A DNA stretch of 28,346 bases from Nitrosomonas europaea (GTDB lineage: Bacteria > Pseudomonadota > Gammaproteobacteria > Burkholderiales > Nitrosomonadaceae), in NCBI RefSeq assembly GCF_900167395.1, contig NZ_FUWK01000008.1, positions 43,942 through 72,287 on the forward strand, in the 5' to 3' direction. The notes below the pieces were generated by a model. That model did not search any database. It saw only the letters and a list, made by a program, of their open reading frames with translations, and had not been told where the DNA came from. The translations under genes and the position numbers were made by a program. Shown piece by piece: positions 1 through 10,654 of the stretch (the stretch's first letter is position 1; each line of letters opens with the position of its first letter).

Positions 1-690
1 GACAACAGCACCAACACCAAAACTGTTGACAGCAACAACACCAGCACCAAAACTTCTGACAGCAGTGACAACAGTACCAACACCAAAACTGTTGCAAATA
101 CAGACAGCAACAACAGTGGTAAAGCATCTGCCGATGACAAGTCTGCTGCTGCTAATAACAATAGTACTGCCAGTGTAGACAATAGCAACAGCAGTACTAA
201 CAGCAAAGACAGCAACGATAACAACAGCCGTGCCAGTGCCAGCGCTAAAGGCGATGGCTCTGCTTCTGCCAACGGCGGTAGCACTGCTACTTCTGATAAC
301 AGCGATAACAGCGATAACAGCAGTGCCAGTGCCAAAGGTCAGGGTAATGCCTCGGCTAATGGTGGTGGTGCAGCAACCGTAACGGATAGCAGCGATAACA
401 GCAGCGCCAATGCACATGGTGGTAAAGGTAATGCTGTTGCAAATGGTGGTGGGGCTGCCACATCTACCTACGCTATCAATAATGCTGAGTTGAGCGGAAC
501 CGTAACCGGCCAGGCTGCTGAAGGAATTCCTTTGGTCGATGCCTCCGCTCTCGTTGGTGGTAATTTAAGCAATAATATTGACGGTTCACTGAATGGTGCC
601 GGCCTGAATCAGGTTGCTCAGAACATTGGGTCAAGCTCTTTGATTCAGCAGCAAGTATCTTTCCAGGGTAATGTGAACGTTAATCAGTAA
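1..690 (+). CDS. Secreted low-complexity repeat protein (5' partial); candidate fibre/cargo subunit of the downstream Fap-like cassette
   Basis: Frame +1 is open from base 1 to TAA at 688-690; the listed ORF 490..690 is only its tail. Composition is D/N/S/T/G/A-rich. A DNSTNTKTV unit at nt 1-27 recurs at nt 67-93 with one synonymous change. Three imperfect repeats SA[SN]A[KH]G.G.A.ANGG..AT lie at nt 235-291, 322-378 and 403-462. The Q/N-rich C-terminal motif is shared with the next ORF. Confidence 0.7.
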   Translation, partial: DNSTNTKTVDSNNTSTKTSDSSDNSTNTKTVANTDSNNSGKASADDKSAAANNNSTASVDNSNSSTNSKDSNDNNSRASASAKGDGSASANGGSTATSDNSDNSDNSSASAKGQGNASANGGGAATVTDSSDNSSANAHGGKGNAVANGGGAATSTYAINNAELSGTVTGQAAEGIPLVDASALVGGNLSNNIDGSLNGAGLNQVAQNIGSSSLIQQQVSFQGNVNVNQ

Positions 691-723
691 TAGCTTTATT
701 GGTTAATGTAATGTAGTACTTTC

Positions 724-762
724 AACTGGCAGGCAGTAGCAATATTGCTTGCCAGTTTTTTT
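724..762 (+). terminator. Rho-independent terminator or attenuator after the repeat-protein gene
   Basis: AACTGGCAGGCAGTA / GCAA loop / TATTGCTTGCCAGTT forms about 15 bp of stem (two G-U pairs) around a GNRA-type tetraloop. It is followed by a run of seven T (756-762) and sits 34 nt after the stop codon. Confidence 0.75.
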
Positions 763-805
763 ATCGGGATAGGAAAGATTACGTGAGTGACAAATGGAGA
801 TTTTT

Positions 806-1174
806 ATGAGAACCAGTATTAGAAAGGGTCTTGTTGCACTTGCGATATGGGTGCCTGTTGGTATGAGTTATGGAGCTTCCGGATCAGAATTGTTGGAGGG
901 AAAGGATATATATCTCCCTCATGCAGAGAGAGCAACTCTGGAAGAGCTGGATAATGCGACAGGCCGTGAAGGAGTGGATATAACCACACTAAATCGTATG
1001 AATGTCCGTGCATTTCTTGCCGATAATAGCGCAACCAATAATGTCAGCGGGTTTAATTCCATCGATAACGGTTCTTTTGTCGGAGCAAGCGGTATGTTTT
1101 CGGTAATTCAGAACTCAGGTAACAATGTTCTCATACAGGACTCGACAATAGTCAATGTGACCATATTACCTTGA
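806..1174 (+). CDS. Small secreted protein with Q/N-rich C-terminal motif paralogous to the upstream repeat protein
   Basis: ATG at 806 is preceded by GGAG at 796-799; the listed ORF starts at 794. The predicted signal peptide is MRTSIRKGLVALAIWVPVGMSYGA. The C-terminal NSIDNGSFVGASGMFSVIQNSGNNVLIQDSTIVNV aligns with NNIDGSLNGAGLNQVAQNIGSSSLIQQQVSF of the upstream ORF. Confidence 0.6.
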   Translation: MRTSIRKGLVALAIWVPVGMSYGASGSELLEGKDIYLPHAERATLEELDNATGREGVDITTLNRMNVRAFLADNSATNNVSGFNSIDNGSFVGASGMFSVIQNSGNNVLIQDSTIVNVTILP

Positions 1175-1297: not shown

Positions 1298-1993
1298 ATG
1301 AAGTTACCGCTGACATCATTTGCTGTTTTCCTGATCACTCAGACAGTCTGGGCTGGTGAGGTGTTTGCGCTGGATATGATTGGTGTGGCGGGTGGTGCCA
1401 ACTTCAATATACAAGGCAAGAGCTTTGCGGAACGCCGTTTTAGTACGGTTTACAGGCAGCAATTCGATTTCAGTTGTGGCTCGGCAGCTTTGGCAAGTTT
1501 GCTTACTTTTCACTATGACGATAGTGTGGATGAACAGTCTGTATTTGTTGATATGTTCCAGCATGGGGATCAGGAAAAGATCAGGCGAGAAGGTTTTTCC
1601 ATGCTGGATATGAAGCGGTATCTTGAACGAAGAGGGTATGGTTCAGATGGTTTCAAAATCAATTTAGATCAGTTGTATTCCACTGGCAGTCCCGCCATCA
1701 CTATCATTAATCATAATGGCTATATGCACTTTGTCATTATTAAAGGGGTGGATGAGGATAGAGTTCTGGTGGGGGATCCGGCTCAGGGCGTCAAATCCAT
1801 GGATCGCACTGAATTTGAAAGAATGTGGGGGAATCGCATTGTATTTCTGATTCATAATCATGTGGATCCTGAAGTAAGCTACCGGAAAATACATCAGGAG
1901 TGGTCGGGCAGGTTGGCCCCATTGGGAGAAGCAGTTGATCGGACGAGTCTGGGCGTTTTTAATGTACTGCGGCCAGGTCCTTGGGATTTTTGA
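1298..1993 (+). CDS. Periplasmic C39 peptidase-like protein (FapD-like)
   Basis: ATG at 1298 gives the signal peptide MKLPLTSFAVFLITQTVWAG. The motif QQFDFSCGSAALASLLTFHY is a C39 catalytic Cys context. DQEKIRREGFSMLDMKRYLERRGY and HFVIIKG..DRVLVGDPA carry the His/Asp region. It is a standalone domain with no ABC transporter fusion. Confidence 0.75.
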   Translation: MKLPLTSFAVFLITQTVWAGEVFALDMIGVAGGANFNIQGKSFAERRFSTVYRQQFDFSCGSAALASLLTFHYDDSVDEQSVFVDMFQHGDQEKIRREGFSMLDMKRYLERRGYGSDGFKINLDQLYSTGSPAITIINHNGYMHFVIIKGVDEDRVLVGDPAQGVKSMDRTEFERMWGNRIVFLIHNHVDPEVSYRKIHQEWSGRLAPLGEAVDRTSLGVFNVLRPGPWDF

Positions 1994-2018: not shown

Positions 2019-2519
2019 ATGAAAACAGGACACTTTTATCTGATGGTAAAAAATATCCGATCCTGCCTTGTGCTAATGGTATTGTCCTGTTTTACGGTCC
2101 AAACATACGCCGAAGATGTAACTGTCAGGTTATCAGTACAAAATATTCATCACCCGGAGTGGGAACGCGCAACGGATGAAGAGCTCGCAGTATTGAGAGG
2201 GGGATTCGTTCTTCCAAATGGTGTACATATTGATATGAGTCTGGAAAAGTTTATCCACTTGAATGATGTGCTGGTGCATTCATCCTCTCTTCAGCTTCCG
2301 GGCGCAGGTGTGGTTTTACAAGCGGGTATGCAGAATATGGTGTCTGATTCTATCACCGTGCCGGAACTCAGTACCTTCGTTCAGAATACACTGGATAGTC
2401 AGCATATTGAGGCATTGACAACCATCAATATAGAAGTCAGCAATCTGAAAGGGATTGCAGCGAATGGCGGCGGTCAGCAGGTTTTTACCGAATTTTTAGC
2501 ACCAGCTTTGTTGCGGTAG
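2019..2519 (+). CDS. Small secreted hypothetical protein in the Fap-like cassette
   Basis: The ORF 1935..2519 overlaps the upstream gene. In-frame ATGs at 2007, 2019 and 2043 all precede the signal-peptide-like KNIRSCLVLMVLSCFTVQTYA-ED. The start choice is uncertain. No family was recognised. Confidence 0.5.
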   Translation: MKTGHFYLMVKNIRSCLVLMVLSCFTVQTYAEDVTVRLSVQNIHHPEWERATDEELAVLRGGFVLPNGVHIDMSLEKFIHLNDVLVHSSSLQLPGAGVVLQAGMQNMVSDSITVPELSTFVQNTLDSQHIEALTTINIEVSNLKGIAANGGGQQVFTEFLAPALLR

Positions 2520-2540: not shown

Positions 2541-3929
2541 ATGAGAAAAAATATATCTGAAAATAATGGTAAACGCCCCGGAAGTGTGAAAAGCAGATTT
2601 CTTGTGAGTGCTTTTGCAGTATTTCTTGTTGCTTATTCTCAGACAGGAAGATCTTCAGAAGAAGTCCTCGAACAATATAAATCCCTTTTTGCGCAGCAGC
2701 AAAAGGAGTTCGAAAAACAGCGGCAGATCATCATCGAGCAGGGGAAAGAAATAGAGAAGCTCAAATCCCGTCTGGACTCCCTGATTACTACGCAACCTAC
2801 CGATCGCAGCCCGGCCAGCAATGTAGCTGGCAAAGATGGGCAACGTCCCCCGCAGGTATCCTCACCCTCTACTCCAAAGACGGTAGTTGCCGGACCAGTT
2901 GGCAAAAAAAATGATCAGGTACAGACACGCACCGTGCCTGGTAATCTTCCTGCTGGGCCTGTAGGACAGGCGCCACCCAAGCAGGATGAGAAACCAAGAC
3001 CGCCTGAAATGCCTAGATTGAGTGATGCAGTAGGAGGAGTGCTGACACGTAAAGGCAAGATCGTGGTTGAACCTGCACTGGAATATGCTTTCACGGACAG
3101 TAACCGGATATTTCTGGATGCATTCACATTTCTCCCGGCGATTGCTATTGGTTTGATAGATGTTCGTCAAGTGGATCAGCACAGCCTTATGGCAAGTATT
3201 GGAGCTCGCTACGGTGTGACAGATCGTCTTGAGGTTGAAGCGAGAGTTCCCTATCGCGCGCGTTTTGATGAGCAACGCTCCAGGCCAGTCAGCATTGGAG
3301 CCGGGATCGATGAAACATTCAATGCATCCGGGAATGGCTTGGGGGACATTGAATTTGCCGCTCGCTATCAGCTTAATTCAGGAGCGGGAGGGTGGCCTAT
3401 TCTGGTGGGAAATATGCGAGCAACAGTACCTACAGGGAAGGGGCCCTTTGATATTAAATACGCACAGGCTCAAGGTGTTCCAGGTGCTGTATTTCCTACT
3501 GAAGTTCCTACAGGATCGGGTTTTTTCAGTTTTGAACCAAGCGTTACTGCACTCTATGCAACTGATCCGGCCGTATTCTTTGCAAATCTGGCCTATAACT
3601 ACAATATGGGTACCACGGAGAAGGCGCTTGATGGATCAGGTGATAAATTTAAGGTTGATCCAGGTTATGCAGTGGGTATGACTTTTGGTATGGGGTTCGG
3701 AATTAACGAGCGCTCTTCGTTCAATATCGGGTATGGTCATCGCCATATTTTTAATACCAAAATAAATAATCGTACATTGAAAGGTAGTCAGCTTGATATA
3801 GGGCAATTACTGCTCGGCTATGCTTTTAAATATTCACAGCAGACTACCTTGAATTTCTCCATTGCGATAGGAACAACCGATGATGCACAGGATGTCAGAC
3901 TCAGCTTTAGAGTGCCCATGACGTTTTAA
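2541..3929 (+). CDS. Outer-membrane beta-barrel with N-terminal coiled coil and Pro-rich linker (FapF-like / MetA-type transporter fold)
   Basis: It has a signal peptide and a heptad-like region EEVLEQYKSLFAQQQKEFEKQRQIIIEQGKEIEKLKSRLDSL. A P/Q/G-rich linker of about 80 aa follows, then alternating-hydrophobicity barrel strands with a GLGD motif. The C-terminus is the OMP signature ...RVPMTF. Confidence 0.7.
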   Translation: MRKNISENNGKRPGSVKSRFLVSAFAVFLVAYSQTGRSSEEVLEQYKSLFAQQQKEFEKQRQIIIEQGKEIEKLKSRLDSLITTQPTDRSPASNVAGKDGQRPPQVSSPSTPKTVVAGPVGKKNDQVQTRTVPGNLPAGPVGQAPPKQDEKPRPPEMPRLSDAVGGVLTRKGKIVVEPALEYAFTDSNRIFLDAFTFLPAIAIGLIDVRQVDQHSLMASIGARYGVTDRLEVEARVPYRARFDEQRSRPVSIGAGIDETFNASGNGLGDIEFAARYQLNSGAGGWPILVGNMRATVPTGKGPFDIKYAQAQGVPGAVFPTEVPTGSGFFSFEPSVTALYATDPAVFFANLAYNYNMGTTEKALDGSGDKFKVDPGYAVGMTFGMGFGINERSSFNIGYGHRHIFNTKINNRTLKGSQLDIGQLLLGYAFKYSQQTTLNFSIAIGTTDDAQDVRLSFRVPMTF

Positions 3930-4118: not shown

Positions 4119-4652
4119 TCATTGACAGCTATCCTTGTTTCCATCGCACCAGATTTTTCTGATTTTTTCTTCCATTCCGGCATTCATACCGGCAGCACGA
4201 CCTTCTTTGAAAGCGATTTCCGGGGCTATGCCTTCGCTCAGCCGGTAGGCAGTCCACATGGCACCAGCACGGTTACCGGTAGCACAATGGATCAGAACGG
4301 GGGGGGCTGCCTGCTCTAAAGCCTGTTTGAAGGCTGTTAGCTGTGACTCATTTACCCCTTCACCGGTGACAGGGATATTGATATAAGTTATGCCGACTGC
4401 TTCAACAGCTTTTTTCTCGCTTGGTGTCCCTTCTGATTCACTGCGCAGATCTATTACAGTCTGAAAACTGTGCTTGACGAGCTCCTGAATGCCATCTTTG
4501 GTAAGTGCTCCGGAAGTAGCAATATTGGGCGTGACGCGCAAATAACGCATCAGATCGTTAATCTGTGTAGCGTAGGGTACCTGATCTTTTGCAGATACCC
4601 AGCCTGATGACGATAAAGCGAGAATGATGATAAAAACTCTCACAAAAAACAT
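4119..4652 (-). CDS. Exported CX5R phosphatase-fold protein (DSP-PTPase-like / TIGR01244-type sulfur-transferase domain)
   Basis: The N-terminal signal peptide is MFFVRVFIIILALSSSGWVSA. The active-site-like motif HCATGNRAG matches HCxxGxR(S/T/A)G. Confidence 0.6.
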   Translation of the reverse strand: MFFVRVFIIILALSSSGWVSAKDQVPYATQINDLMRYLRVTPNIATSGALTKDGIQELVKHSFQTVIDLRSESEGTPSEKKAVEAVGITYINIPVTGEGVNESQLTAFKQALEQAAPPVLIHCATGNRAGAMWTAYRLSEGIAPEIAFKEGRAAGMNAGMEEKIRKIWCDGNKDSCQ

Positions 4653-4864
4653 TTTGACCTCCGATCATAATTGGAATGTGTAAAAATCGTAGCATGAATG
4701 CTCGGGTGGATAAAAGAGCAGATATGAGTTACGGCGAGGAATAACAATTTCTGGCCGATCCCGGCGTTTGATCACTCAAATCAGGGAAAGTCACGTTTGA
4801 TTGTGTTGGCAAGTATGGTGATTGACAACTGATTTGCCATTTTTTACTAAGGGTTGATGAACAG

Positions 4865-5956
4865 GTGTTCACCGCTTTGGATTATGAGTATATGTCCCAT
4901 GCGCTGCGGCTGGCCGAAAGGGGGCTGTTTACCACCAGCCCGAATCCTCGGGTAGGGTGCGTAATCGTCAATGGCGGCAAGGTAGTTGGAACAGGGTGGC
5001 ATGAGCGGGCAGGGGAGCCACATGCAGAAATTCATGCATTACGGAAAGCAGGGGATTTGGCCAAGGGCGCTACTGTTTATGTAACACTCGAGCCTTGCAG
5101 TCATCATGGCCGTACACCACCTTGCGTCGAGGCTTTGATTCAGGCAGGGGTGTGCAAAGTAGTCATGGCGATGAATGACCCTAATCCGCATGTAAACGGT
5201 CAAGGAAAGGAATGGTTGCAGAAAGCCGGTATCGCAATACAAGCAGGTTTGCTGGCTGATCAAGCAGAGCGATTGAATATCGGATTTGTTACCCGAATGC
5301 GACATGATCGTCCATGGGTGCGGACTAAGATAGCAGCCAGCTTCGATGGCAGAACGGCTCTGAAGAATGGAAAGAGCCAGTGGATTACCAGTGAGCCGGC
5401 TCGGCGGGATGGCCATAAATGGCGAGCACGTTCATGTGCGATACTGACAGGGATCAGCTCGGTCAGGAAGGATGACCCTCAACTGACGGTGCGGTATATT
5501 ACGGTCTCCAGGCAGCCAATGCGCATAGTGGTGGATTCGAACCTGGAAACTCCCTTGCAGGCAAAGTTGCTGCAGAATGCAGATACAACTTGGATCTTCA
5601 CGGCACAGACCAGCAAAGAAAAAATACACCGACTGGAAGATACCGGTGCTCACATCGTTGTTTTGCCTGATTTGGCCGGAAAGGTTGATCTCAAAGCCAT
5701 GATGGTGAAGTTGGCCGAATTAGGTATCAATGAGCTGCTGGTTGAAGCAGGCCCGGTACTGAACGGAGCGCTGGTAACAGCTGGGCTGGTGGATGAAATC
5801 ATTTTTTATTTTGCCCCCAGCCTGTTGGGTAATTCAGCACAAGCGATGCTGGCATTGCCTGAAATCGGGGATTTATCAGAGAAGTATGATTTGCAAATAT
5901 CCGATATTCGAAAAATCGGGATGGATGTCCGTCTGATAGCAAGGTTTATGAAATGA
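4865..5956 (+). CDS. ribD: Bifunctional riboflavin biosynthesis protein RibD (pyrimidine deaminase / uracil reductase)
   Basis: The start is GTG. Deaminase zinc motifs HAEIHAL and PCSHHGRTPPC are present. A C-terminal reductase domain is present, and the length of 363 aa is typical. Confidence 0.9.
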   Translation: MFTALDYEYMSHALRLAERGLFTTSPNPRVGCVIVNGGKVVGTGWHERAGEPHAEIHALRKAGDLAKGATVYVTLEPCSHHGRTPPCVEALIQAGVCKVVMAMNDPNPHVNGQGKEWLQKAGIAIQAGLLADQAERLNIGFVTRMRHDRPWVRTKIAASFDGRTALKNGKSQWITSEPARRDGHKWRARSCAILTGISSVRKDDPQLTVRYITVSRQPMRIVVDSNLETPLQAKLLQNADTTWIFTAQTSKEKIHRLEDTGAHIVVLPDLAGKVDLKAMMVKLAELGINELLVEAGPVLNGALVTAGLVDEIIFYFAPSLLGNSAQAMLALPEIGDLSEKYDLQISDIRKIGMDVRLIARFMK

Positions 5957-6047
5957 GGTTAGAAGTGCAGGGAATGATAAAGAGAAAAGGTTTTTTGCCG
6001 TTGGCAGAAGATATTGATGGTGCCACTACTGAATCATGAGCTGAATT

Positions 6048-7253
6048 ATGCGAATTCTGCACATTCTGGATCACTCTATTCCGTTACACAGCGGTTATAC
6101 ATTTCGCACGTTGGCGATCCTGAAAGAACAGCGCGACCTGGGGTGGGAAACGTTTCATGTTACCAGCGCCAAACATACCGGCTCGGTTGCGCTGGAAGAA
6201 GAAGTCGATGGCTGGCATTTTTACAGGACGCCGGAGCATTCCCGTTTTGCCAGCAGACTGCCGATTCTGAATCAGATCGCTGTGATCAATGGTTTAGCTC
6301 GGCGGGTGGCTGATATCGTGCGAATCATCAAACCGGATCTTTTGCATGCCCATTCACCGGCACTCAATGCGATTCCCGCTCTGATCGCTGCGCGTAAAGC
6401 TTCTATACCGGTTATTTATGAGGTGCGCGCCTTCTGGGAAGATGCAGCAGTGGACCACGGCACCAGCAGTGAATGGGGTGTACGCTATCGTCTGACACGC
6501 GGGTTGGAAAATTTTGCACTTCGGCGTGTAGATGCAATCACTACGATTTGTGAAGGATTGCGAAATGACATGATCGGACGGGGTATTGCACCGGAAAAGA
6601 TTACGACTATTCCCAACGCGGTCGATATCGAGAAATTTGCTGCAAGCCGTCCGGCGAATGAATCACTCAAGGAGCAGTTTGGATTAAAGAGCAAGCGCAT
6701 CATCGGGTTTATCGGCTCTTTTTATGCTTACGAGGGGCTGGATATATTGCTACGGGCTTTGCCGATCATGCTGCTGCAGCATCCTGATTTGCGTGTATTG
6801 CTGGTCGGTGGCGGGCCACAGGATGGGCAGTTGCGGCAACTTGCCAGCCAGCTTGGTATCGGGGATAAAGTCATTTTTACCGGCCGTGTCCCACACGATA
6901 AAGTGCAGGATTACTATGATTTGATTGACGTTCTGGTTTATCCGCGCCTTTCCATGCGACTTACTGATCTCGTCACTCCTTTGAAGCCGCTGGAGGCTAT
7001 GGCACAGGGCAGAGTGCTGGCTGCTTCGGATGTGGGAGGACATCAGGAACTGATTCGTGACAACCATAACGGTATTTTGTTCAAATCCGGTGATCCGAAT
7101 TCACTGGCGCAAAAAGTCGGAGAGCTGATAAACGTGCCAGGCCGGTGGGAAGATTTGCGCAGGGCTGGACGGGAGTTTGTCGAGACTGAACGTAACTGGC
7201 GGAAAAGTGTGGCGAAATATCAGTTTATTTATAGTAATTTGCTCAATAAATAA
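6048..7253 (+). CDS. GT4-family glycosyltransferase (resembles the PEP-CTERM/exosortase-associated sugar transferase subfamily)
   Basis: The N-terminus MRILHILDHS.P..SGY matches the family. The C-terminal GT-B region has the E..G....EAMA.G.PV..S..GG..E-type motif (PLKPLEAMAQGRVLAASDVGGHQELI). The subfamily call is from memory only. Confidence 0.75.
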   Translation: MRILHILDHSIPLHSGYTFRTLAILKEQRDLGWETFHVTSAKHTGSVALEEEVDGWHFYRTPEHSRFASRLPILNQIAVINGLARRVADIVRIIKPDLLHAHSPALNAIPALIAARKASIPVIYEVRAFWEDAAVDHGTSSEWGVRYRLTRGLENFALRRVDAITTICEGLRNDMIGRGIAPEKITTIPNAVDIEKFAASRPANESLKEQFGLKSKRIIGFIGSFYAYEGLDILLRALPIMLLQHPDLRVLLVGGGPQDGQLRQLASQLGIGDKVIFTGRVPHDKVQDYYDLIDVLVYPRLSMRLTDLVTPLKPLEAMAQGRVLAASDVGGHQELIRDNHNGILFKSGDPNSLAQKVGELINVPGRWEDLRRAGREFVETERNWRKSVAKYQFIYSNLLNK

Positions 7254-7405
7254 ATGTAGACTAAATATTGGGGCTACAGATATCGCCTGAGCTTGAATTT
7301 TCTAATTAATTGCGTGTATTAACCACTTAAAACGTTTCGCTGCGTGTTGCCCAGGGCGGCTTTTTATGGTTCCTGACAAATCTAGGGCGTGGAAATTTTA
7401 ACAGT

Positions 7406-8674
7406 ATGAAACTAGCTCCCGAGGAGACTGAGAACAAAGACAAGAAAGATACTAATAATCCCGGGATTGTTGTATTTTCTTCACTTTTTCCGCACTCGGG
7501 TCAGCCTAATGCTGGTTTGTTCATTCGTGAACGTATGTTTCGGGTGGGAAAACATCTTCCGCTCGTGGTGGTGGCACCCGTACCCTGGTTTCCATTTCAG
7601 AAAATTCTTCGCAGATGGCGCCCTCATTTCAGACCGGATGCTCCTTATATGGAGCTTCAGGAAAATATTGAGGTTCTCCATCCACGTTTTTTTTCCATTC
7701 CGGGATTTTTTAAGTTTCTGGATGGTTTTTTCATGGCATTAGGCAGCTTGCCTGTTTTGTGGCGGCTCAAGCGACGTTTCGATTTTAAGATTATTGATGC
7801 GCATTTTGCCTATCCGGACGGTTACGCTGCGAGCCTTCTGGGGAGATGGTTCCGGGTTCCTGTCACGATTACCTTGCGAGGCACGGAGGTACGGCTTTCC
7901 CACAGATTTTTATATCGAGATCTTATGCGTTCAGCCATGATACGTGCTGCGAAGATTTTTTCAGTATCGGATTCTTTGAAACAGGTAGCAGTGGCAATCG
8001 GAATCCAGGAAAGCAAAATACTCGTGGTGGGTAATGGTGTGGATCTTGATAAGTTTTGTTGTATTGATCGGTCTGAAGCGCGTAAGAGCCTGGAAATACC
8101 GGAAGATATACCGATATTGATATCGGTGGGTGGGCTTTGTGAGCGCAAGGGGTTTCATCGTGTCATCGCGTGTCTGCCTGACTTGATAAGTACTTACCCT
8201 GGTATTCAATTTTTGATAATCGGTGGTGCAAGTGCCGAGGGTGACTGGACTGAGCGTTTGCAACAGCAGGTTTCTGAATCGGGGTTTGAGAAAAATGTTC
8301 GTTTTCTGGGTGTCATGCCACCAGATCAGTTGAAGATTCCGCTTTCTGCTGCTGATTTATTTGTGCTTGCTACAAGAAATGAGGGATGGGCTAATGTATT
8401 TCTCGAAGCAATGGCATGTGGTTTGCCGGTGGTGACTACTGACGTAGGCGGAAATGCTGAAGTAGTCTGTCGTTCGGAACTGGGTAAACTGGTTCCTTTT
8501 AATGATCAGCAGGCACTTTGCCAGGCAATTGCCAATGCACTGGAAGTAAATTGGGATCGAGAAAAAATAATCATGTACGCTCACGCAAACTCGTGGGATC
8601 AGAGAGTAGCTGTCCTTGTAGAAGAATTTGTGAAGATCACCTGCCAATCTGAGTTGGCGGAACAATATCGTTAA
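7406..8674 (+). CDS. GT4-family glycosyltransferase
   Basis: Motifs are VVFSSLFP....PNAGLFIRER at the N-terminus and NEGWANVFLEAMACGLPVVTTDVGGNAEVV (the GT4 EX7E-type region). Confidence 0.75.
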   Translation: MKLAPEETENKDKKDTNNPGIVVFSSLFPHSGQPNAGLFIRERMFRVGKHLPLVVVAPVPWFPFQKILRRWRPHFRPDAPYMELQENIEVLHPRFFSIPGFFKFLDGFFMALGSLPVLWRLKRRFDFKIIDAHFAYPDGYAASLLGRWFRVPVTITLRGTEVRLSHRFLYRDLMRSAMIRAAKIFSVSDSLKQVAVAIGIQESKILVVGNGVDLDKFCCIDRSEARKSLEIPEDIPILISVGGLCERKGFHRVIACLPDLISTYPGIQFLIIGGASAEGDWTERLQQQVSESGFEKNVRFLGVMPPDQLKIPLSAADLFVLATRNEGWANVFLEAMACGLPVVTTDVGGNAEVVCRSELGKLVPFNDQQALCQAIANALEVNWDREKIIMYAHANSWDQRVAVLVEEFVKITCQSELAEQYR

Positions 8675-8676
8675 CC

Positions 8677-10032
8677 ATGGCTGGTATTTATACACATTTG
8701 ATATCCGGATTCCTGTTCCCGCTTCATGAACACCTCAAGCGGCACGCCAGTGTCAATGTGCGTAAATCCATGGAGCAGACTCAATGGTTTTCTCCTGAAA
8801 AGATCGTGCAGTTACAGACTGAAAAACTGCGTCAGTTGCTCATTCATATAAACACACATGTTCCCTATTACCGCACGCTGTTTGCTGAGTTGGGTTTTCA
8901 ACCGGAGGAAGCTGGTTCACTGGCTGATTTGCAATACCTGCCTTTTCTCGATAAATCAATCATTCGTACACATCTGGAGGAACTCAAATCTGATCAGGCG
9001 CGAGGGCTCGTTCGTTTCAATACGGGAGGATCCAGTGGCGAACCGCTGGTTTTTTTTATCGGCAAGGAACGTGTCAGCCACGATATTGCCGCAAAGTGGC
9101 GAGCTACACGCTGGTGGGGCGTGGATATAGGTGATCCCGAAATCGTTGTCTGGGGTTCTCCGATCGAATTGGGTGCGCAGGATACGTTGCGTTCATGGCG
9201 GGATCATTTGTTTCGCAGCAGATTATTGCCCGCATTTGAAATGTCCGACCAGAAGCTCGATGATTTTCTTGATACGATCCGCAGGTTTCATCCCAAAATG
9301 CTGTTCGGTTATCCCTCGGCTTTGTCGCATATAGCGAAATATGCTGATAAATCAGGTATTAAGATGTCCAATTTGGGAATTCAGGTGGCTTTCGTCACTT
9401 CGGAACGGCTGTATGATGATCAGCGCAGACAAATCAGTGACACTTTCGGCTGTCCGGTTGCAAATGGTTATGGGGGGCGTGATGCCGGGTTCATTGCTCA
9501 TGAATGTCCTGCAGGCGGAATGCATATCACCGCTGAGGATATCATCGTTGAAATTGTCGATTCTAACGGCCATCCCCTTCCATACGGAGAATCAGGCGAA
9601 ATTGTGGTGACTCATCTGGCAAGCAGAGATTTCCCTTTCATTCGTTATCGTACCGGGGATATTGGTATTCTGGATGACAGAACATGTGATTGCGGGCGGG
9701 GATTACCGCTGCTTCGGGAGATACAGGGCCGCAGCACCGATTTTGTCGTTGCGCAGAATGGTACAGTCATGCACGGGCTGGCACTGATTTATATTTTGCG
9801 AGACATGCCGGAAGTAAAAGTTTTCAAAATCATCCAGGAGAGCCTGGATTTCACCCGAGTTCAGGTCGTTGCAGAGACCGGCTTGCATCCGTCGCAGATC
9901 AGCCGGATCACCGAATCGTTTCAAACCAGACTGGGTCGGGATGTAAAGATCAAGGTGGAACAGGTATCTGAAATTCCGGCTGAGAAATCAGGCAAGTTTC
10001 GTTATGTGGTCAGTAAAGTGGCCGGGGTTTGA
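8677..10032 (+). CDS. Phenylacetate-CoA ligase / coenzyme F390 synthetase-like adenylate-forming enzyme (CapK-like)
   Basis: The P-loop-like motif TGGSSGEP, together with YGGRDAG and YRTGD, matches the PaaK/F390 family. The gene starts 3 nt after the upstream glycosyltransferase stop. Confidence 0.7.
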   Translation: MAGIYTHLISGFLFPLHEHLKRHASVNVRKSMEQTQWFSPEKIVQLQTEKLRQLLIHINTHVPYYRTLFAELGFQPEEAGSLADLQYLPFLDKSIIRTHLEELKSDQARGLVRFNTGGSSGEPLVFFIGKERVSHDIAAKWRATRWWGVDIGDPEIVVWGSPIELGAQDTLRSWRDHLFRSRLLPAFEMSDQKLDDFLDTIRRFHPKMLFGYPSALSHIAKYADKSGIKMSNLGIQVAFVTSERLYDDQRRQISDTFGCPVANGYGGRDAGFIAHECPAGGMHITAEDIIVEIVDSNGHPLPYGESGEIVVTHLASRDFPFIRYRTGDIGILDDRTCDCGRGLPLLREIQGRSTDFVVAQNGTVMHGLALIYILRDMPEVKVFKIIQESLDFTRVQVVAETGLHPSQISRITESFQTRLGRDVKIKVEQVSEIPAEKSGKFRYVVSKVAGV

Positions 10033-10033
10033 A

Positions 10034-10654
10034 TTAATCAGTCGATTGCACAAAAGGTATAGGTACTCCCATCCATAACAGTGCAACTACTATCAGCGCG
10101 ATTCCCACACCGGTAGTTCCCACGATCATCCCAGCAATGATGGTCAGACCATCCTTGCTGAGTAACCCCAATGACATGATGAGGATTCCCAGGCCGGGAA
10201 GAAAATTGATCAGGGGGACCGGCAGTGCAATGGAAATCGAGAAAATGAATGAAAAGAGGCCGATGATACGTTCCCAGGCATGTACACTGATGTAAGTCAG
10301 CCGCGGATGCATGTGGCTTTCAATTTTGCGTAACCATGGTGCTGCCTTGGTGATTAATTTGTCCAGTGTTCCCCTTTTTATGGTTTTTTTTGTCAACCAT
10401 TCTGGAATCCACGGCGCTTTCATGCCACATATCATTTGGATCGAGAAAATAAACAGCGGAATGGCAAAAACAGTAGTGTACCCAGGTGGTGCGGGAACAG
10501 GCAGACAGATCGGTAAAGTAGCAATGGCGAGCAGCACGGCAAAGCCACGCTCGTGCAATGAGTTTTTGATTTCGTCCACACTGATCACTGCATTGGTGTT
10601 TTGTACGACGATCAGTTGCAATAGTTCGGATGTATTTTTTTCCTTGTTCTCCAC
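10034..10654 (-). CDS. exoD: Exopolysaccharide synthesis protein ExoD family (membrane)
   Basis: ERGFAVLLAIATLPICLPVPAPPGYTTVFAIPL is the typical ExoD N-terminal signature. Several TM segments are present. Its stop lies 1 nt from the convergent upstream gene stop. Confidence 0.7.
   Translation of the reverse strand: MENKEKNTSELLQLIVVQNTNAVISVDEIKNSLHERGFAVLLAIATLPICLPVPAPPGYTTVFAIPLFIFSIQMICGMKAPWIPEWLTKKTIKRGTLDKLITKAAPWLRKIESHMHPRLTYISVHAWERIIGLFSFIFSISIALPVPLINFLPGLGILIMSLGLLSKDGLTIIAGMIVGTTGVGIALIVVALLWMGVPIPFVQSTD

Follow-up and report, generated by a model that had tools for sequence, protein, structure and literature searches.

The window analysed here, a stretch of 28,346 nucleotides (nt) of Nitrosomonas europaea (contig NZ_FUWK01000008.1, positions 43,942 to 72,287 of the forward strand), carries a cassette of genes arranged on one strand in the order repeat protein(s), small protein, C39 peptidase, p4 and barrel. 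The repeat protein (rep) and the small protein have in common a tail rich in glutamine and asparagine (Q/N), and the best reading of this tail is that it represents a single copy of the imperfect repeat of the FapB/FapC type, homologous to that repeat and not merely analogous. Exactly one such repeat lies near the C-terminus of each of three exported substrates, namely the acidic rep, which is rich in aspartate, asparagine and serine (D/N/S), the small protein of 122 amino acids (aa) and, in degenerate form, p4. With a probability of roughly 0.6, this repeat would serve as a single cross-beta stacking unit common to a major subunit and two minor partners.

The cassette corresponds to NE0787-NE0791 (names assigned by gene order), the matching locus in AL954747.1 being located at approximately 847-868 kb. 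All of its proteins are hypothetical in public annotation, and no mention of NE0787-NE0791 was found in the literature searched. The features of the cassette are as follows:

1..690, + strand: repeat-protein (rep) gene, 3' part (NE0787 by order); the left end of the window cuts the gene
463..687, + strand: conserved 75-aa C-terminal module of rep, made up of block A, a variable loop and the imperfect-repeat core
724..764, + strand: terminator-like hairpin with a 15-bp stem, a 4-nt loop and a T7 run (hairpin itself 724-757)
806..1174, + strand: small protein gene, 122 aa from ATG 806 (NE0788 by order)
1298..1993, + strand: putative periplasmic C39 cysteine peptidase, FapD-like (NE0789 by order)
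2043..2519, + strand: p4, putatively FapE-like (NE0790, annotated as 158 aa); the open reading frame (ORF) may also start at 2007 or 1935
2541..3929, + strand: putative FapF-like outer-membrane barrel, 462 aa (NE0791 by order)

The shared C-terminal module

A preliminary description of this DNA had aligned the tail of rep with that of the small protein. Both tails were found where it had placed them: nt 571-687 encode NNIDGSLNGAGLNQVAQNIGSSSLIQQQVSFQGNVNVNQ (stop codon 688-690), while nt 1055-1171 encode NSIDNGSFVGASGMFSVIQNSGNNVLIQDSTIVNVTILP (stop codon 1172-1174). Comparison of the two by BLASTP gave 18/39 identities with an E-value of 0.13, which is not significant on its own, and the likeness was therefore tested at the family level. 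Alignment of 74 rep tails with 81 small proteins using hhalign returned a probability of 95.4% and an E-value of 1.7e-8 over 49 columns. A hidden Markov model (HMM) built from rep tails alone scored the small protein of the window at 27.6 bits, a value reached by none of 2000 composition-preserving shuffles of the C-terminal half of this protein (mean 0.7, standard deviation 1.6, maximum 11.9). Across all six reading frames of the window, this model picked out the rep ORF (4e-26) and the small protein (1.2e-7) and nothing else, the next match having an E-value of 2.1. In the reverse test, an HMM of the small-protein module did not match the window's own rep protein significantly or above shuffles; it does match the rep proteins of other loci (1e-4 to 1e-6).

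The family-level alignment, the shuffles and the clean six-frame scan together identify the common motif as real homology and not an effect of composition. A chance match of two Q/N/S/G-rich tails, which could appeal to the poor BLASTP E-value and to the biased composition of both proteins, is rejected as having next to no probability in view of the profile-profile and shuffle results, the cross-locus HMM matches and a register and position that are constant across 80 genome loci and 80 metagenome loci. A C-terminal beta-signal of the beta-barrel assembly machinery (BAM) type was also rejected, the tails ending in ...NVNQ and ...TILP with no terminal aromatic residue.

The segments first reported for the motif both lie inside the repeat core, but the homology runs approximately 25 residues further towards the N-terminus. 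The module of rep consists of block A (nt 466-513, TYAINNAELSGTVTGQ), a variable loop and the core (nt 565-684, LSNNIDGSLNGAGLNQVAQNIGSSSLIQQQVSFQGNVNVN). The small protein is composed of a Sec signal (806-877), a leader-like sequence ATLEELDNATGREG (932-973), its own block A (983-1051) and the repeat core (1049-1171). In the hhalign comparison block A also aligns between the two proteins, TYAINNAELSGTVTG of rep (nt 466-513) with TTLNRMNVRAFLADN of the small protein (nt 983-1051). Rep and the small protein stand as carriers of the motif, but a third and degenerate carrier, p4 (the 170-aa protein), had been missed, as had the family to which the motif belongs; pairwise BLASTP of rep and p4 was uninformative.

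The small protein is 100% identical to CAD84699.1, whose annotated start is ATG 794, and it has no Pfam or NCBIfam match. Homologues of approximately 120 aa occur in Nitrosomonas, Methylobacter, Methylomonas, Methylomicrobium and other genera, and the family was found in 415 of 185,579 species genomes (one genome per species). From the relatives in these 415 species 80 genome loci were kept; fetched genome loci are numbered L001 onwards, and their neighbourhoods were scanned to +/-8 kb. A further 80 metagenome loci were fetched via the rep-tail pattern QQQV[SA][FV][QD]GN. The last 40 or so residues of the small family are nearly invariant, mean pairwise identity being 0.69 over the last 45 columns vs 0.43 in the N-terminal part. 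An HMM of multi-repeat units (from the proteins with tandem units described below) detected exactly one unit in 81/81 small proteins and in 81/87 rep-type proteins, where it ends 4-17 aa before the C-terminus. No part of the cassette is more conserved than the two modules: their mean pairwise identities (0.69 for the small protein and 0.66 for the last 40 columns of the rep tail) compare with 0.60 for the C39 peptidase, 0.56 for the barrel and 0.37 for p4.

Linkage of the motif to the cassette is strict in both directions. In 79/80 genome loci the gene immediately ahead of the small gene encodes a rep-type carrier, the gap between the two being 11-196 nt. Counting from the small gene, the C39 gene follows in 78 of the 79 loci with room for it and p4 in 72/73, while a barrel gene was located at a distance of up to 8 kb in 46/50, in some cases upstream or encoded on the opposite strand. 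In the one exceptional locus (L063) the small gene is truncated. In all 67 metagenome loci with more than 600 nt downstream of rep the small gene is the next one, and C39, p4 and barrel come after it as far as the contig extends. The motif is therefore conserved in orthologous loci and tied to the cassette, and neither of the outcomes that the preliminary description had named as speaking against it (loss from orthologous loci, or wide occurrence away from C39/barrel pairs) was found.

The full rep protein is 465 aa long (L001:8500-9897) and comprises a Sec-type N-terminus, a long D/N/S/T-rich low-complexity region and the conserved 75-aa tail. Two tandem rep-type genes, each with one C-terminal repeat, precede the small gene in seven loci (L015, L019, L020, L033, L046, L054 and L067). 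A hairpin with a T-run was identified at the same place between the rep and small genes in 23/80 loci using a crude scan. In the other Nitrosomonas loci L005-L013 some bases of the stem are changed and the stem still pairs, and several Methylobacter loci have a different stem sequence. Judging from its terminator-like form, this hairpin would give more transcript of rep than of the genes downstream. AlphaFold2 produced no confident monomer fold for either module, with predicted local distance difference test (pLDDT) values of 46.7 for the small protein and 52.0 for the rep tail; as weak evidence, the absent monomer fold would fit folding on assembly.

The low-complexity region of rep is itself variable. 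In its repeat units and length this region (window 1-462) differs between two N. europaea genomes (L001:8500-9669 vs L002:970-1960), the full proteins being 465 and 406 aa long, and across genera it ranges from almost none (133-aa proteins of L042 and L045) to approximately 600 residues of DNSDNS-type repeats (L061, L065 and L084). In L008 a run of N falls within this region, which suggests that it breaks assemblies.

Relationship to Fap repeats and machinery

The Fap functional amyloid system of Pseudomonas, which gives rise to SDS-resistant cross-beta fibres in biofilms, its repeats and the variation in their number are already known. Most Fap subunits have three repeats and the number may rise to 16 (PMC3792158, PMC12392863); a single-repeat FapB has been reported in Vibrio (PMC3792158). 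Each repeat of FapC forms one Greek-key cross-beta layer of approximately 52 residues (PMC12392863).

The link between the module and these repeats is formed by a group of intermediate proteins. When the rep-tail profile was compared with 1.84 billion representative proteins, only 96 were matched at E<=1e-3, most of them at the C-terminus, and the distant matches among the 96 are proteins with 4-9 tandem units of the rep-tail motif. The last unit of one of these, P0274, reads TNTITNGSFNSAKGITNVQQNNGANNVIQQAVSVTSVH beside GFNSIDNGSFVGASGMFSVIQNSGNNVLIQDSTIVNVTILP of the small protein. Of nine multi-repeat proteins scanned, six are recognised by the NCBIfam models of FapB, FapC or both: P0331 (6.5e-14 and 2.3e-12), P0339 (4.2e-9 and 2.3e-12), P0297 (2.5e-7 and 1e-6) and, more weakly, P0290, P0283 and P0343. 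Neither of the two models matched P0274, P0273 or P0294. Using hhalign, the multi-repeat units align with the small module (E=1.2e-9), with the rep module (E=5.1e-14) and with Pseudomonas FapB/C repeats (E=1e-7). Direct alignment of the modules with a low-diversity alignment of Pseudomonas FapB/C repeats was weak (P=0.004 and 0.011), its register SFxGxxGxxxVxQxxG being the one expected. A word-indexed protein search with the rep-tail alignment returned 20 short proteins only and missed known long carriers, and is uninformative on other architectures; the exact 465-aa rep of N. europaea is not in that collection, where long low-complexity carriers are under-represented.

Two sister cassettes place the small protein next to subunits with several repeats. 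In L169 (GCA_049325035.1; 6001-12906) a four-repeat protein takes the place of rep. The genes after it encode, in order, a small-protein homologue (2.5e-25), a C39 peptidase (3e-88), a homologue of p4 (3.9e-30), another four-repeat protein, for which Pfam FapBC is on record, a barrel (2.9e-120) and a VpsR-like sigma-54 activator, of a type that also adjoins the Pseudomonas fap operons fetched. In L170 (6001-8005) a seven-repeat protein precedes the small homologue (4.4e-21). In both, as in the window, the small gene stands directly after the subunit gene. Within a subfamily of systems, Fap-type subunits are thus regularly accompanied by the small protein. The subunits of L169 and L170 have four or seven repeats with short linkers and are seen by Pfam FapBC, whereas that of the window has one repeat and a long acidic region. 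The N. europaea type is the variant with a subunit that retained one repeat only and acquired a long acidic stretch of low complexity.

The remaining genes also resemble those of Fap systems. The C39 protein has a Sec signal (judged by eye), its catalytic cysteine in FDFSCGSAALA (1463-1495) and its histidine in GYMHFV (1718-1735). It matches Pfam Peptidase_C39 (8.7e-19) and, below their cut-offs, NCBIfam FapD (3.7e-40; 137.6 bits vs a cut-off of 330) and FilB (1.8e-36). Its identity to Pseudomonas FapD is 40% (E=2e-40), with the FDFSCG and GY.HFV motifs aligned. The barrel matches FapF in the PDB (5o65, 5o67 and 5o68) at E-values of approximately 5e-26 over residues 157-461 and is 25% identical to Pseudomonas FapF by BLASTP (E=2e-29), PTG motifs included. 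An N-terminal heptad-like helical stretch of the barrel protein (2658-2783) was judged by eye to be a coiled coil, a feature of the trimeric FapF barrels. With NCBIfam the barrel matched FapF (1.1e-39; 136.4 bits vs a cut-off of 700) and FilC (1e-17), both below cut-off, and being so far below that of FapF it is considered a homologue and not an equivalog. By these scores the cassette is a distant relative of Fap and not a member of the canonical-operon family.

Like the fapABCDEF operon, the cassette combines a FapD-type C39 peptidase, a FapF-homologous barrel, a putatively FapE-like protein with an N-terminal ELxxLRG and subunits with a Q/N repeat of the FapB/C type, in the order subunit, peptidase, FapE-like protein and barrel. 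Unlike that operon, which begins with the gene of the periplasmic chaperone FapA, it lacks FapA and a three-repeat FapB. FapB and FapC typically have three imperfect repeats of approximately 39 residues, whereas the major subunit of cassettes of the present type has one at its very C-terminal end, preceded by a D/N/S-rich low-complexity stretch that spans from a few tens to several hundred residues (almost none in the shortest, 133-aa forms). An additional 122-aa protein with a FapE-type N-terminus and one repeat is encoded between the subunit and the peptidase, the NCBIfam equivalog cut-offs are missed widely and Pfam FapBC is blind to the carriers. The window-type repeat is also much more conserved than the repeats of FapB/C, in which only 4/39 positions are fully conserved (PMC3792158).

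Similarity also exists to the Fil system of Acinetobacter (pilus_FilB and pilus_FilC), as seen from the FilB and FilC matches of the C39 protein and the barrel, which place both in a wider class of periplasmic C39 peptidases with FapF-like barrels. These scores are lower than those for FapD and FapF and lie below the cut-offs; no paper on Fil of Acinetobacter was found in the literature searched. In curli, the minor protein CsgB has the repeat of CsgA and templates it at the cell surface after unfolded export via a dedicated outer-membrane channel. The cassette resembles curli in this nucleator logic and in having a Q/N/G-rich strand-turn-strand repeat, but CsgG, CsgE and CsgF are not homologous to the FapF-like barrel and the C39 peptidase, and CsgA has five repeats where the window carrier has one. 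As Pfam scans of the carriers returned no family, they contain no curlin repeat. The comparison of curli with Fap has also been drawn previously (PMC3684753).

Leaders of p4 and the small protein

Protein p4 and the small protein are paralogues over their full length (hhalign probability 97.2%, E=3.4e-11, 118 columns). The start of the p4 gene is ambiguous: the ORF opens at TTG 1935, overlapping the C39 gene, with ATG codons at 2007 and 2043. Public annotations give lengths of 158, 185 and 194 aa; the 170-aa form corresponds to ATG 2007, and translation from ATG 2043 results in a normal signal peptide. The degenerate repeat copy of p4, LSTFVQNTLDSQHIEALTTINIEVSNL, is located at 2367-2447 (...LSTFVQNTLDSQHIEALTTINIEV...) and is followed by 23 residues, with approximately 20-30 in other members of the family. 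Comparisons of p4 with rep, with Fap repeats and with multi-repeat units by hhalign were not significant, and the unit HMM finds no unit in it.

NCBIfam FapE, the model of a secreted minor component with a conserved N-terminal region, matches 8/46 members of the p4 family, with a best E-value of 2.2e-5 and only 0.044 for the p4 of the window. Alignment of the family with two Pseudomonas FapE sequences (hhalign probability 83%, E=9.4e-6) is driven by the ELxxLRG region, the C-terminal likeness being judged by eye. The secreted constituents of Fap fibres are FapB, FapC and FapE, with FapB as the presumed nucleator (PMC3684753, PMC5557850). FapE undergoes processing at its N-terminus, and its C-terminus resembles the repeats in being rich in N and Q (PMC5557850).

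Directly behind its Sec signal, p4 possesses a leader of the double-glycine (GG) type, ATDEELAVLRGG (2169-2204), followed by F. The consensus of GG leaders is E(-8), L(-7), a hydrophobic residue at -4, G(-2) and G/A/S(-1) ahead of the mature protein. That of p4 reads EELAVLRGG|F, with E(-8), L(-7), L(-4), G(-2) and G(-1), and L60, R64, G66 and F67 are invariant in the family and G65 nearly so. The pattern E[LIM]xxx[RK]G was identified in 66/79 members of the p4 family and a stricter GG pattern in 53/79. The small protein has the variant ELDNATGREG, and the core pattern is present in 57/81 members of its family. No leader of this type was found among the rep-type proteins (0/87). These leaders (ELxxLRGG / ELDxxRG) are unusual in sitting behind a Sec signal and not at the N-terminus itself. 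In Pseudomonas FapE the aligned residues read DAELAELRGRF.

Cleavage by C39 peptidases takes place behind a double-glycine leader, and the substrate of FapD was left unclear by Rouse et al. 2017 (PMC5557850). The leaders of p4 and the small protein are thus candidate cut sites for peptidases of the FapD type. If this is true, the cassette names the long-sought substrate of such peptidases and the site of cleavage, ELxxLRG|G in FapE-like proteins, which is testable also in Pseudomonas FapE.

A second C39 (262 aa) and FapF-like barrel (419 aa) were identified immediately upstream of the rep-type gene in L031 (3597-7136; also L034:4889-6932). This C39 is closer to FilB (7.8e-31) than to FapD. Ahead of the pair lie genes for three small Sec proteins of 149, 92 and 125 aa; L[ST]DxQMDxVSAG[GSA] follows the signal peptide in all three and none has a C-terminal repeat, which suggests a wider class comprising a periplasmic C39 peptidase, a FapF-like barrel and substrates with GG leaders.

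Proposed assembly and alternatives

The preliminary description had proposed a pair of nucleator and major subunit comparable to FapB/FapC. Homology of the repeat via intermediates and the FapD-, FapE- and FapF-like partners support this proposal more strongly than it had been put forward, while the identity of the nucleator and the formation of fibres are what we infer from them. In the proposed sequence of events, all five proteins would cross the inner membrane by Sec (N-termini judged by eye), and the FapD-like C39 peptidase would remove a short N-terminal propeptide of the small protein and p4 at ELxxLRGG / ELDxxRG. The unfolded substrates would exit through the barrel, as its homology to FapF suggests. 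In the extracellular space, the three proteins may stack their single repeats as cross-beta layers, with the low-abundance small protein and p4 predicted to seed, cap or anchor and the abundant rep predicted to polymerise via its tail, its disordered acidic region projecting from the fibre. Rep is taken as the abundant subunit because a terminator-like hairpin follows its gene and because the gene is duplicated in seven loci. The more specific picture of an amyloid with a single-layer subunit is put forward tentatively, at clearly less than even odds: the last 40 or so residues of rep would contribute one Fap-type layer, its acidic chain of up to approximately 600 residues would form a dense anionic brush around the fibre, and two FapE-like single-repeat proteins would act as seeds after removal of their propeptides by C39.

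Several points weigh against the stacking of single repeats. A single repeat cannot build an intramolecular solenoid as FapC does, and we know of no functional bacterial amyloid whose major subunit supplies a single layer and, ahead of it, several hundred disordered residues. Pfam FapBC (PF27129) and NCBIfam FapB and FapC did not match the carriers of the window or any of 50 rep tails at E<=1, and these Pfam and NCBIfam scans returned no Fap, curlin or other family. Profiles of the rep and small families did not match FapC chains 9u4u and 9nqd in the PDB, both of which are present there, and the Fap link therefore rests on the intermediates. The step from rep to these proteins is partly circular because they were found with the rep-tail profile; the steps from the small protein to the intermediates and from the intermediates to FapB/C are independent of that search. 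The copy in p4 is visible solely via its homology to the small protein. The rep and small modules covary weakly (partial Mantel r=0.21, p=0.004). Lastly, the near-invariance of the small module is unlike the repeats of FapB/C and could point to a specific partner, for example the barrel.

In the strongest alternative, the module would serve chiefly as a signal for export: the repeat would be recognised by the barrel, or by the periplasmic coiled coil of the barrel, and the substrate threaded out C-terminus first, and the likeness to an amyloid repeat would reflect recognition by the channel, with no requirement for fibre formation. We consider this unlikely, and it may coexist with stacking. 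In its favour, the module is the sole element common to the three exported proteins, where it invariably lies at or close to the C-terminus; its conservation exceeds that of the peptidase and the barrel, and in the small protein it is nearly invariant across beta- and gammaproteobacteria, which fits a fixed partner. Furthermore, a secretion signal of FapF substrates was not found described in the literature searched. The relatives with 4-9 units, however, hold them along the protein and not at the C-terminus only, which is the layout of a building block, and the p4 copy is strongly degenerate with 23 more residues after it.

It is improbable that the small protein instead acts as a periplasmic capping chaperone, mimicking one repeat and blocking premature polymerisation in the place of FapA. 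In favour of this role, no FapA-like gene adjoins the cassette in L001, where an unrelated 89-aa ORF on the opposite strand and an aminotransferase gene lie upstream of rep. The small gene is always directly after the gene of the major subunit, also in L169 and L170, and its module is far more constrained than that of rep. Such a role is at odds with the full-length paralogy of the small protein to the FapE-like p4, with which it has a leader-like N-terminal motif in common, since fibres contain FapE as a secreted component (PMC3684753, PMC5557850). Fap operons moreover commonly vary by lacking fapA (PMC3792158), so nothing needs to replace FapA.

Recognition of the motif by the C39-like peptidase, a possibility raised in the preliminary description, is disfavoured to the point of being very improbable: despite the strict co-occurrence of motif and C39 gene, peptidases of this family cut after a GG leader, which is carried by p4 and the small protein and by none of the motif-bearing rep proteins, and the three leader-bearing substrates of the second C39/barrel pair of L031 are without the C-terminal module.

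For the stacking of single Fap-type repeats, the preferred reading, the cassette would represent a natural minimal Fap repeat, which could be used to test layer-to-layer templating and the difference between nucleator and subunit. Published Fap surveys require a match to the FapBC repeat model (PMC12392863, PMC3792158). The models tested miss the present carriers and the small protein occurs in 415 species genomes, indicating that machinery of the Fap type is wider than current screens show. The hosts of the carriers include ammonia oxidisers, methanotrophs and marine gammaproteobacteria, and biofilm formation and aggregation of such organisms matter for wastewater treatment and methane cycling. 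In the literature searched no FapF or Fap amyloid in Nitrosomonas was found, the single match concerning biofilms of Pseudomonas fluorescens. Nor were descriptions found there of a major subunit in which a long D/N/S-rich region precedes a single repeat at the C-terminus, of the small single-repeat FapE-like family, of a canonical GG-type leader in FapE-like proteins, or of Fap-like machinery in ammonia oxidisers, methanotrophs and marine psychrophiles.

Downstream of the cassette, window positions 4119-10654 hold a gene resembling protein tyrosine phosphatases (PTP-type, minus strand), ribD, two group-1 glycosyltransferase genes and genes for a CapK-like AMP-binding protein and ExoD. This neighbourhood is of the exopolysaccharide type, with LptF/G and SecA encoded further on.

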